Positions 33,731 to 36,563 of a DNA stretch of 50,140 bases are shown one piece after another. Every line of letters begins with the position of its first letter. Position 1 is the first letter of the stretch. The DNA comes from a virus (Duplodnaviria > Heunggongvirae > Uroviricota > Caudoviricetes). The position numbers and the translations under genes are program-made. A model generated the notes under the pieces. The model made no database searches and was not told where the DNA came from. It saw nothing but the letters and a program-made list of their open reading frames with translations. Where the stretch lies: the IMG/VR virus record IMGVR_UViG_2522572023_000006. The stretch is one strand, 5' to 3'.

Positions 33731-34780
33731 TTACCCAAGCACGCCAGTTGCAAAGGCGTGATCAAGAAAACGAAAAATTAAATCAACCTGAGAACCATGC
33801 TTTTCTTCGAACGCCAGCGGATCCGCATGAAGCTCGTTGTGATGCTCCCGACACAGCGGTAGCGTGAAAATATCGTGAGATTTTGTCCCCATTCCGCCCT
33901 GACCATGACCAATCAGGTGATGGGGATCGTCGGCTGGCTTACCACAACACGCACACGGCTGTGTCTTTACCCAGCGTGTGTATTTCTCATTTACCCAGCG
34001 GCGACGTTTAGGTCGTTTCATGAAGGATTCCGGAGACTCCGGATCAACGGCAATGCTGACCACCGTCTTTTCCTGTGGTGGGTTCTGTTGCTGGTGGGTG
34101 TGAGACGGTAGCGCAATATTTTTTGTGCGCTGCTTCAGTATGCTGGTGGCGGTCTGTTCTCCCGGTATGATGTCGCTTTCACGGTATACGGAGCGGATTT
34201 TTTCCGCACGCAACCCCAGCGAACGACGTAATACCGCTTCCGGTAGCGCGTCCGCCACCTGATTGCGGACCGCCCACCAGGATAATTCAGCCAGAGATAA
34301 TTCACGCTCCTGTGCGCCATTCATTGCGTGACGGATGATGTCAATCATCCAGGCGGCCAGATTCTGTTGAGCAAGTTGATCCAGTGAATCAGATGTCTGC
34401 TCCCGCAGCTGGTTGTCGCAGTGCCAGCACAACACCATCGCGCCGGTACCGTAACGGTGAATGACGGTTTCGCTGTGATGATAATCACCGTGTAGCCACT
34501 GGCAGGATTTCACGTGACGTAATAACCAGTCAGACAGTGCACCAGCGCCACCCGCAGCACGGATCACCCGCTCATCGCTGAAAAATGGCAGTAGTGATTT
34601 ATCTTCCGCCAGCGGCTGGTGAACGGCAGGTACAACCCCGGACGGCAGAGCTCGCATGCTTTTTGGTTCCGGCTCCACCAGTATTCTGCCGTTATGGAAT
34701 GCTGACATTGATTCACGGCCTGGCTTAACGATAACCAGACCGAGTTCCGGTACCAGAACAGGTCGAAGTAATACCCGCAC
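33731..34780 (-). CDS. DUF968-type protein with C-terminal HNH-like nuclease motif (YdfU-like)
   Basis: 349-aa ORF; C-terminal CxxC ... HHLIGHGQGG ... CREHHNELH zinc-finger/HNH signature; true start may be an internal Met. Confidence 0.6.
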   Translation of the reverse strand: MRVLLRPVLVPELGLVIVKPGRESMSAFHNGRILVEPEPKSMRALPSGVVPAVHQPLAEDKSLLPFFSDERVIRAAGGAGALSDWLLRHVKSCQWLHGDYHHSETVIHRYGTGAMVLCWHCDNQLREQTSDSLDQLAQQNLAAWMIDIIRHAMNGAQERELSLAELSWWAVRNQVADALPEAVLRRSLGLRAEKIRSVYRESDIIPGEQTATSILKQRTKNIALPSHTHQQQNPPQEKTVVSIAVDPESPESFMKRPKRRRWVNEKYTRWVKTQPCACCGKPADDPHHLIGHGQGGMGTKSHDIFTLPLCREHHNELHADPLAFEEKHGSQVDLIFRFLDHAFATGVLG

Positions 34781-34781
34781 A

Positions 34782-35060
34782 TTACCTCCAGATCCGTTGC
34801 TGGAATGTGCGGGACGGACGCGGTGGCCGTTCGGAGTAAGGGGGCCTGACGGAGATTATCCAGTGACGGTAGTCGAGGCTAAGGGCTTTTTTAACCTCGA
34901 ATCCGCGCCTGCGGTAACACTGAATGAGCCATTCGGCCTGTTCTTCAGTGCATGGGGGATGCTGGTACCAGTCAGATTTGAATGCGTGAAAACACCGTCC
35001 GCGCCTGCTGGCAAAGACGGCAGAATCATCAGAATTGTGTAATTTGGTATCGTGCGCCAT
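34782..35060 (-). CDS. Hypothetical protein (Rem-like)
   Basis: About 92-aa product from MAHDTKLHNSDD (internal ATG); between the DUF968 gene and hok. Confidence 0.35.
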   Translation of the reverse strand: MAHDTKLHNSDDSAVFASRRGRCFHAFKSDWYQHPPCTEEQAEWLIQCYRRRGFEVKKALSLDYRHWIISVRPPYSERPPRPSRTFQQRIWR

Positions 35061-35227
35061 CGGCTGTCTCTGCTGGCGCAGCAGGTGCCAGTTGTTCAGG
35101 CTGGCGTGCGAATTGTAAACCAGAATGCCAGGAAAAAACAAAACCCGCCGAAACGGGTTAAGTGCGGGTGCGTTGAGGATGCCTGACACATCAGAGGTGG
35201 CGAGGGATTTCTCCCCCGCCTGGTCTC

Positions 35228-35383
35228 TTACTCCTCAGGTTCGTAAGCTGTGAAGACAGCGACCTCCGTCTGGCCGGTTCGGATTCGTACCTCGCAGAGG
35301 TCTTTCCTCGTTACCAGTGCCGTCACTATGACGGTTAAACAGATGACGATCAGGGCGATTAACATCGCCTTTTGCTGCTTCAT
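35228..35383 (-). CDS. hokD: Hok-family type I toxin (HokD/RelF-like)
   Basis: 51-aa product MKQQKAMLIALIVICLTVIVTALVTRKDLCEVRIRTGQTEVAVFTAYEPEE; single TM helix and conserved Hok C-terminus; an in-frame upstream extension exists in the ORF track. Confidence 0.8.
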   Translation of the reverse strand: MKQQKAMLIALIVICLTVIVTALVTRKDLCEVRIRTGQTEVAVFTAYEPEE

Positions 35384-35629
35384 AGCCTGCTTCTCCTTGC
35401 CTTTCGGCACGTAAGAGGCTAACCTACGTTTGTGAAGCATAGATTGGGCCTCAGATTAATGTTAAACGTCTTGCAGGACGCGTAATGTTAACTGGGGCTT
35501 TTCTCTATCTGCCTTTTGGTGTTCATGCCTGAGACAGATAGCCTCAAGCACCCGCAGCAATTCTACTTAACTCTCGCTTTACCGCAAACCGTTTTTACCC
35601 GATATGGGAATTCCCATATCGTAATGAAT

Positions 35630-35734
35630 TCAGTTCCCTAGTCGATCCATCAAAAACACAACCAGGCAGTAAACGCCCACAACAGCAATAACAGCCAGCG
35701 CACCTTCCATTGCCAGTGAAATATCATCCGACAT
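35630..35734 (-). CDS. Unannotated 34-aa hydrophobic peptide with strong RBS
   Basis: ATG preceded by AAGGAGGG at 4-nt spacing; product MSDDISLAMEGALAVIAVVGVYCLVVFLMDRLGN has one predicted TM helix; below the ORF-track length cutoff. Confidence 0.4.
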   Translation of the reverse strand: MSDDISLAMEGALAVIAVVGVYCLVVFLMDRLGN

Positions 35735-35849
35735 ATTCCCTCCTTTGGTGTGAATCCCGGCGAACGTTTTTACCCCCACCGACAAATAACATATACTAAA
35801 AAATCAATAGCTATAGCAACGCCTGTAATTGCAAAGGCTTCAGGCCAGA

Positions 35850-36563
35850 TCATTGGCGCACCTCCTGCGGCGGTTCTGGTAGCGGCATCCAGTCGGTTAC
35901 ATTGCGGCTCTGTGTTTCGAAAAATTCATCACCATTACGGACTACATCAAAAAACTCACCGTCTCGATATTGCGCATAAAGAACGAATGCGCCATCACAT
36001 AAAATAATTACGTGCTGACCATCATCCGGCATTCGCTCACTACAGCTTATCCAACCATCCGGAGTTACCGGATAGTTGGTTGACGTTTCCGAGATTTCCC
36101 GAAAATTATTGGTTGACGAACCCTTATTTTCCCGAAAGTTTCCAGCCTGAAGCATGGCGGCGCGGCAGGCGTTCCATATTTCGGCAGCAATATCGCGCTC
36201 GCTATCGGTTAATTTGTACGTTGAAACATAGCCAGAGAGCATTTCTACGTTTTCCGGAGTTGCTTCTTCAGGCACTACCGGTGCTGGCTCACGTATTACA
36301 GGCTCGCCCATGCGTGATTCTCCCTGCGCCTCTTTCACCATGTGGTCATTGATTTGCTCCAGTCGCCGAACGTGCTCATCAGCTTCAAGCGCTCGCCGTT
36401 TCCAGATGGACAGGTCTTCACGAGCGCCCTGATATGCGTCACCGTATTCGCCGTTAAATACTGGCGCTGGCGGGGCGATGCGTCCAAGCAACTTATTTAC
36501 CTCTTTCGCCATCGCGTCATATTTATCTAAATAGCGATTAGCTTCTAAGCAGACTCGGTGCAT
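35850..36563 (-). CDS. Ea22-like / DUF551-domain protein
   Basis: 237 aa; C-terminal DUF551-type signature (TDWMPLPEPP) with acidic coiled-coil N-terminal part. Confidence 0.5.
   Translation of the reverse strand: MHRVCLEANRYLDKYDAMAKEVNKLLGRIAPPAPVFNGEYGDAYQGAREDLSIWKRRALEADEHVRRLEQINDHMVKEAQGESRMGEPVIREPAPVVPEEATPENVEMLSGYVSTYKLTDSERDIAAEIWNACRAAMLQAGNFRENKGSSTNNFREISETSTNYPVTPDGWISCSERMPDDGQHVIILCDGAFVLYAQYRDGEFFDVVRNGDEFFETQSRNVTDWMPLPEPPQEVRQ

Follow-up and report, generated by a model that had tools for sequence, protein, structure and literature searches.

A 34-codon open reading frame beside a canonical hok/mok/sok locus is probably a genuine mini-protein gene of lambda-like E. coli prophages

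The 34-codon open reading frame (ORF) that lies immediately upstream of hok in this prophage is likely to be a genuine gene of lambda-like E. coli prophages, one that encodes an accessory inner-membrane mini-protein and stands outside the control of hok. Both the gene and its translation have been reported before, and the neighbouring hok locus is canonical, with nothing out of the ordinary in its organization. What is new is the finding of purifying selection on the ORF, the narrowness of its family, and its usual setting between a 27-codon ORF and hok.

The window, by which we mean the whole stretch of 50,140 nucleotides that was analysed, is a complete lambda-like prophage that is read on the minus strand. 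The gene order in the region of interest is a DUF551 gene (36563..35850), the 27-codon ORF, the 34-codon ORF, hok, a hypothetical gene, a DUF968 gene (34780..33731), RusA and Q. The 34-codon ORF belongs to the early-right 'nin' region, with the replication genes on one side and the antiterminator gene Q on the other. An identical stretch with the same annotation is found in E. coli 95-3192 and in other O145:H28 and O157:H7 genomes. The features of the locus are collected in Table 1.

Table 1. Coordinates of the two mini-ORFs, the hok/mok/sok locus and the repeats associated with them
Feature	Position	Strand	Basis or remark
27-codon membrane ORF, MIWPEAFAITGVAIAIDFLVYVICRWG	35770..35853	-	ATG overlaps TGA of upstream DUF551 gene (ATGA)
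Direct repeat GGGTAAAAACG, 11 bp, upstream copy	35765..35775	-	
Shine-Dalgarno AAGGAGG of 34-codon ORF	35739..35745	-	4 nt before ATG
34-codon ORF, WP_001278450.1 / ECs_5710 / XECs145; product MSDDISLAMEGALAVIAVVGVYCLVVFLMDRLGN	35630..35734 (ATG 35734, TGA 35632-35630)	-	Acidic N-tail, one transmembrane helix, short C-tail
Perfect 22-bp palindrome CGATATGGGAATTCCCATATCG	35600..35621		Between 34-codon ORF stop and hok promoter
Direct repeat GGGTAAAAACG, 11 bp, downstream copy	35590..35600	-	
hok promoter, TTGCGG, 16-nt spacer, TAGAAT	35560..35587	-	7 nt before hok mRNA 5' end; read from the sequence
Full-length hok mRNA, 421 nt	35133..35553	-	Rfam match, fold, terminator
Predicted Sok antisense RNA	35432..35502	+	Homology to annotated sokW of 933W
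Predicted Sok promoter, TTGCCT, 17-nt spacer, TAACCT	35397-35402 and 35420-35425	+	Read from the sequence
mok frame, 70 aa, overlaps hok	35228..35440	-	PHROG 251 'MokW-like', 7.7e-33
hok, 51 aa	35228..35383	-	Pfam PF01848, 3e-23
hok terminator hairpin	35159-35142	-	T-run after hairpin

In the predicted 34-residue product, which carries a net charge of -3, an acidic N-tail (MSDDISLAMEG) precedes an 18-residue helix and a short C-tail. Its single hydrophobic segment spans residues 12-29, with a mean Kyte-Doolittle value of 2.89 for the best 18-residue window. The Shine-Dalgarno sequence is unsequestered, as the local fold of the 5' region resembles that of shuffled sequences (z = -1.16), and 247 bp separate the stop codon of the ORF from the hok ATG at position 35383. 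The coordinates, the spacing of the AAGGAGG element, the single helix and the distance of about 250 bp to hok are all as described in the original prediction. No promoter of the ORF's own emerged from a sequence scan. Taken by itself, the AAGGAGG motif is no commoner than chance predicts, being found three times in the window where 5.3 occurrences are expected, and the ORF is judged to be real on the strength of the cross-locus comparison and of published ribosome profiling.

The ORF had been presented as unannotated, which is incorrect. It is present in RefSeq as the 'hypothetical protein' WP_001278450.1 and in the current Sakai record as ECs_5710, which is located in prophage Sp6. The Sp6 copy encodes the identical 34 residues and is likewise situated between a DUF551-type gene and hok. 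The two ORFs do not differ and are copies of one gene in different prophages. Hucker et al. 2017 (PMC5597208) described this sequence, with a longer extension at its 5' end, as the novel translated gene XECs145. In that study, the reads for which may be pooled over approximately three copies per STEC genome and may stem from a minority of induced cells, growth in LB gave a transcriptome RPKM of 79.1, a translatome RPKM of 346.1, a ribosome coverage value of 4.35 and an ORF coverage of 0.99, and growth in BHI gave 121 and 150 for the two RPKM values and a ribosome coverage value of 1.14. Translation was nearly nil in cold and osmotic stress, the product was predicted to localize to the inner membrane, and the classifier returned the verdict 'real' (PMC5597208). 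The frame called in 2017 is 5'-extended and begins with a non-ATG start codon (PMC5597208). Both the RefSeq annotation and the conservation of the Shine-Dalgarno element favour the 34-codon form over this extended frame. Literature searches of main texts gave no match to the accession or to the peptide sequence, and the match came from the supplementary tables of Hucker et al. 2017. Together, the published RIBOseq data and the comparative evidence bear out the proposal that a real, translated gene for a single-helix peptide resides beside hok.

Our collection comprises 128 IMG/VR loci, 29 of metagenomic origin and several taken from complete genomes, and together they include 16 distinct alleles of the ORF. 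Many of these loci are near-identical STEC prophages and so they are not independent samples. Among the 16 alleles, the numbers of variable sites at codon positions 1, 2 and 3 are 6, 6 and 18 (binomial p = 0.0025), and the amino acid replacements are conservative (I/V, A/V, D/E and F/L, among others). The dN/dS values of the divergent alleles range from 0.06 to 0.24 in the annotated frame, whereas the two alternative frames give 0.67 and 0.94. Allele L008, the most divergent one (dS ~0.8), has a diverged upstream spacer but an unchanged AAAGGAGGGAAT-ATG arrangement. Similarly, the Shine-Dalgarno sequence is retained in 29 of 29 metagenome matches, which were collected with a search pattern that excluded this element. 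Truncated or altered copies of the ORF are few among the 128 IMG/VR loci, nearly all of which have it intact. The 34-codon ORF is thus under purifying selection.

The family is narrow. Homologues recovered by a protein homology search, for which a 51-residue in-frame extension of the peptide was used, come exclusively from E. coli or other Enterobacteriaceae. When 1.84 billion representatives were searched exhaustively by HMMER with a fused 74-residue form of the two mini-proteins, nothing outside their own family was found; two matches to proteins of 1397 and 699 residues (E ~1e-5) involve low-complexity hydrophobic stretches and were discounted. Neither the 34-residue nor the 27-residue peptide has a significant match in Pfam, PHROGs, NCBIfam or PADLOC, and the sub-threshold matches to SecE (0.069), Cmr5 (0.023) and phrog_38566 (0.01) are regarded as noise. 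Proteins of 137 and 183 residues that also begin with 'MSDDI' are chance matches to a degenerate pattern in unrelated high-GC phages. The region is carried by approximately 756 of 5426 complete E. coli genomes (~14%). The carriers are mostly Shiga-toxin-producing strains and they usually have several copies. No example of the ORF was found in the isolated phage genomes of the phage collection.

This very narrow taxonomic range, the lack of distant homologues and the absence from isolated phages are what might be expected if the ORF were a non-functional by-product that is simply carried along with the hok cassette, and the fact that it is naturally deletable, as seen in phage 933W and in the PPompW phages discussed below, could be viewed in the same way. 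However, a by-product should not exhibit dN/dS values well below 1 in the annotated frame only, nor a conserved Shine-Dalgarno sequence, nor an ORF that has stayed intact in almost all of 128 loci, and ribosome footprints cover 99% of its length (PMC5597208). We consider it extremely unlikely that the ORF is without function.

The 34-codon ORF is almost always preceded by the 27-codon ORF and followed downstream by hok. The shorter ORF is a second membrane-protein ORF, still unannotated, that is located just upstream and is also present in phage 933W. It is translationally coupled to the preceding DUF551 gene, and the ATGA overlap of its start codon with the preceding stop codon is kept in six different upstream contexts. 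Its dN/dS values are 0.06-0.37 in frame versus approximately 1 off frame. It is annotated neither in RefSeq nor in 933W, and it falls outside the 2017 translatome list because it is below the 30-residue cut-off of that list. Both 933W and an Escherichia sp. genome have the 27-codon ORF without its 34-codon neighbour, and a scan of genome contigs (P0009) gave one locus only, in which the match is to the 27-codon part. The remaining novelty of the region is this STEC-enriched and well-supported pair of prophage mini-proteins.

There are rare in-frame fusions of the two peptides, 74 residues in length, which arise from a run of six G residues in place of five or seven T residues in place of six. 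Their sources are a Logan short-read assembly and a single-contig genome, and the 128 loci derived from IMG/VR include none. For these one-base homopolymer variants, mutation or sequencing error is the more likely origin. Two other ideas were rejected on the same evidence, namely that an ancestral two-helix protein of 74 residues was split by a frameshift, and that programmed -1 frameshifting occurs at a GGGGG-TAA site.

A small hydrophobic peptide that adjoins a type I toxin gene invites the suggestion that it is itself a type I toxin, perhaps silenced by an antisense RNA that has escaped discovery. The peptide resembles Hok, Ldr, TisB, Ibs and ZorO in being short and hydrophobic, and it also adjoins a type I locus. 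There are also two weak promoter-like sites on the plus strand (9/12 matches), antisense to the region at 35710-35737 and 35769-35797, from which an RNA of this type could conceivably originate. However, these sites are located inside constrained sequence (the first codons of the ORF and the 27-codon ORF) and are not followed by a terminator, and the only RNA family detected on either strand between positions 33000 and 38000 is the sok of the hok locus. To our knowledge, the established type I toxins of the Hok, Ldr, TisB and Fst families have basic tails, whereas this peptide is acidic, with its net charge of -3. Likewise, unlike the toxins listed above, it has an unsequestered ribosome-binding site with a consensus Shine-Dalgarno sequence in a 5' region without significant structure, and it is translated in growing cells. 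Ribosome coverage is high in healthy cultures (4.35 in LB; PMC5597208), and the peptide has no sequence relation to any toxin family represented in Pfam, PHROGs, NCBIfam, PADLOC or the HMMER search. The toxin suggestion made in the original prediction is therefore unsupported, given an acidic and well-translated product, an open Shine-Dalgarno sequence and the failure to find an antisense RNA in the searched interval, and we regard a toxin function as very unlikely.

The evidence is more consistent with a constitutively translatable, 34-residue, single-pass inner-membrane protein, encoded by the second of two tandem mini-membrane ORFs. Its translation, which starts from an unsequestered ribosome-binding site of consensus sequence, takes place in ordinary lysogens during growth. 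Its acidic N-tail suggests that the protein may insert with its N terminus out and its C terminus in, by analogy with acidic-tailed mini-proteins such as the Pf3 coat protein. Among bacterial proteins of up to 50 residues, most of those that have been characterised bind a larger membrane protein. The product of the 34-codon ORF might similarly act as an accessory protein of the 'moron' type that binds a larger membrane protein of the host or the phage, a proposal made by analogy only because no homologue of known function exists among the matches. The peptide is like the small enterobacterial inner-membrane proteins AcrZ, MgtS, MgrB and CydX and the Pf3 coat protein in size, in having a single helix and in its strong ribosome-binding site. 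It differs from them in that it is encoded by a prophage and has no sequence relation to any of them. Expression of these small proteins is harmless to the cell. The 34-residue protein would probably be harmless as well, rather than a self-poisoning toxin. Its gene is well supported as a real one and would be a sensible subject for functional work on small proteins.

The original prediction also held that hok stands alone and that its control is unclear, which is mistaken. There is a complete hok/mok/sok locus at positions 35133-35587, wherein a canonical mok/sok leader is found unchanged directly upstream of hok, an outcome that the original prediction itself had named as removing this point. 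The segment from 35553 to 35378 matches the sok family of Rfam (RF01794) with 118.5 bits and an E value of 1.8e-27, where the gathering score is 59. The 421-nucleotide hok mRNA is predicted to fold with a free energy of -168 kcal/mol (z = -7.51). In both the minimum-energy and the centroid folds, the tac element GGGTGCTTGAGGC (35553-35541) pairs with the fbi element CCTCAACGCACCC (35178-35166), such that the 5' end of the mRNA, GGGTGCTTGAGG, is paired with CCTCAACGCACCC at 35178-35166. A 5'-3' lock of this kind between tac and fbi is typical of hok mRNAs. The Hok protein is 100% identical to HokD of K-12 (tblastn) and is intact in nearly all related loci, and the mok frame is unbroken in nearly all of them. 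Genes of the hok family are enriched in prophages (bioRxiv 10.1101/2025.08.07.668861).

One of the nearest known counterparts is hokW-mokW-sokW of phage 933W and Sakai Sp5, which shares 94% nucleotide identity with the window from the hok promoter to fbi. In 933W the overlap of mok, the position of Sok and the 5'-3' fold-back are all shared with the window, and both hexamers of the hok promoter are identical. The two cassettes differ in location, as that of 933W lies near attR and that of the window in the nin region, and in the C-terminal tail of Hok, which is TAYEPEE in the window and VDYESEK in 933W. Also, 933W is without a 175-bp segment that bears the 34-codon ORF and the palindrome, and the homology of the hok cassette begins at position 35597. 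The hokW-sokW locus of 933W/Sp5 is an experimentally validated type I system that aids the release of Sp5 (PMC8621323). Since this cassette works without the 34-codon ORF, the ORF is not considered to be part of hok control. It lies immediately upstream of, and yet outside, a self-sufficient hok/mok/sok unit with its own promoter, mok, Sok and 5'-3' fold-back.

The relB-relE-hokD arrangement in the Qin prophage of K-12 had been taken as the reference for this locus, a comparison that is best reversed, with K-12 as the derived state and the window as holder of the intact form. The Hok proteins are identical, and the downstream DUF968 gene (ydfU) and Q of K-12 are homologous to those of the window. 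However, the match of K-12 to the window is confined to 35397-35134 and begins just 14 nucleotides ahead of the hok ATG. In K-12, relBE has taken the place of the mok start, of Sok with its promoter, of tac and of the hok promoter, whereas the window keeps all of these elements. Since everything upstream of hok position -14 has been lost, the K-12 form is derived and rearranged, and this truncated derivative is unfit as the reference architecture for hokD. Pedersen and Gerdes reportedly noted in 1999 that hokD has been inactivated by a major rearrangement. The absence of relB and relE from the window, which had been noted correctly, extends over all 50 kb (tblastn E > 6).

There are 109 loci with enough downstream DNA to establish the spacing between the 34-codon ORF and hok. 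In 100 of them the hok mRNA starts 179-181 nucleotides after the ATG of the ORF and the hok ATG is located 348-352 nucleotides after it; one outlier has a distance of 360 nucleotides, hok is truncated in five loci, and it is lacking in three. Such regularity could mean that Hok and the two mini-proteins of 27 and 34 residues constitute one functional membrane module, in which the acidic 34-residue peptide might dampen or help Hok as a protein, or the two mini-proteins might operate as a pair. The three genes maintain their order at fixed spacing in these 100 loci although the outer flanks vary, the arrangement is kept even in the most divergent allele (dS ~0.8), and rare 74-residue fusions of the two mini-proteins exist. 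On the other hand, every partial combination of the three genes exists. In 933W the 27-codon ORF is directly followed by the hok promoter, with no 34-codon ORF between them. One locus (L012) has the 34-codon ORF and hok without the 27-codon ORF, three others (L114, L118 and L075) have both mini-ORFs without hok, and in the PPompW phages only the last codons of the 34-codon ORF, the palindrome and hok remain. In addition, the fusions are one-base homopolymer changes seen in none of the 128 loci and may be sequencing errors, the block spans only about 0.7 kb such that its linkage may be purely physical, and hokW-sokW functions without the 34-residue peptide (PMC8621323). These observations make a single module unlikely.

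A more specific version of the three-peptide arrangement, which we rate as quite unlikely, is that the acidic 34-residue peptide acts, as a protein, on Hok itself or else on some membrane protein of the host. Perhaps the peptide would then serve as a 'safety catch', or would help when Hok assists in lysis and in the release of phage. If true, a toxin-antitoxin system regarded as controlled purely by RNA would gain a layer of control by protein. Our preferred reading remains that of an accessory mini-protein outside hok control. The linkage of its gene to hok is read as mostly physical, and room is left for a functional tie because the distance between them is fixed in 100 of the 109 loci.

The perfect palindrome located between the ORF and the hok promoter is largely conserved among the related loci, with some variants, and is predicted to fold. 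It was considered as an intrinsic terminator and rejected, as it lacks a T-run and was not called by the terminator scan. The stop codon of the 34-codon ORF (35630-35632) sits only 8 nucleotides from the palindrome (35621-35600), and one possibility is that the ORF is a cis-acting leader whose stopped ribosomes control formation of the hairpin and, with it, read-through from the early operon of the phage into the hok promoter region, in which case the peptide itself would be irrelevant. However, purifying selection acts on the amino acid sequence over the full length of the ORF, and this is not what is usually seen in a pure leader. Furthermore, the hairpin has no U-tract and the palindrome persists without the ORF in the PPompW phages. 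We give almost no credence to a leader function, and we continue to favour a gene whose protein product matters.

The two copies of the direct repeat GGGTAAAAACG bracket the 175-bp unit that is missing from 933W. This unit was evaluated as a miniature transposable element, an idea that was rejected because it has no terminal inverted repeats and because the divergent allele L008 is without the upstream repeat copy. Deletion mediated by the short repeats explains its absence better. The arrangement in the PPompW phages fits a similar event, in which a deletion would have occurred between 'CGCCAGG' repeats.

An 11-bp direct repeat flanks a 175-bp unit that holds the ribosome-binding site, the 34-codon ORF and a palindrome. 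In phage 933W, which carries hokW-sokW, the arrangement is otherwise homologous to that of the window and precisely this unit is missing, including the palindrome. The presence or absence of the unit is probably the outcome of a short-repeat-mediated indel. The palindrome (35600-35621) is not accompanied by a T-run, and in the PPompW phages, which lack the 34-codon ORF, both it and hok are kept. The palindrome may form a hairpin in RNA, or it may be a site where a protein binds.

Features of the hok region and its flanks
Feature	Window position	Strand	Remarks
27-codon hydrophobic ORF, MIWPEAFAITGVAIAIDFLVYVICRWG	35770-35853	minus	start codon and DUF551 stop codon overlap as ATGA
11-bp direct repeat, GGGTAAAAACG	35765-35775 and 35590-35600		flanks the 175-bp unit
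Perfect 22-bp palindrome, CGATATGGGAATTCCCATATCG	35600-35621		about 57 bp separate its centre from the downstream start of hok transcription
ORF downstream of hok	34782-35120	minus	phrog_1212 match (labelled unknown function), 8.4e-34

The 27-codon ORF retains its ATGA overlap with the preceding stop across six different upstream contexts, and its dN/dS is 0.06-0.37 in frame versus about 1 off frame. There is also a copy, without annotation, after L0139 in phage 933W. Rare in-frame fusions join this ORF to the 34-codon ORF as 74-residue forms (P0009 at locus L164 and P0005 at L166, aligned to window 35770-35800), wherein a homopolymer has gained either one extra G (6 versus 5) or one extra T (7 versus 6). 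These fused forms are likely to be sequencing errors or sporadic mutations.

Window 35134-35397 aligns to K-12 NC_000913.3 1645024-1645288 with 98.5% identity. K-12 hokD has only the hok coding region and 14 nucleotides upstream in common with the window, and relBE has replaced the mok start, Sok, tac and promoter seen here. In several prophages (among them IMG/VR loci L028, L037 and L059), unrelated sequence truncates hok directly after its ribosome-binding site, about 330 nucleotides past the ATG of the small ORF, where the sequence reads …CAAGGAG before the break and ATGTATGGGTCCACC… after it. Sok and the leader region are retained in these prophages.

At the ORF downstream of hok, RefSeq places a 92-residue hypothetical protein, and the 82.6% DNA homology with K-12 reaches into the unannotated ydfU-rem gap. 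In the E. coli 95-3192 prophage, which is otherwise identical to the window, an IS3-family element splits the Q antiterminator gene (L001 9132-10541); the counterpart in the window (about 32673-33368) is an unbroken 231-codon ORF.
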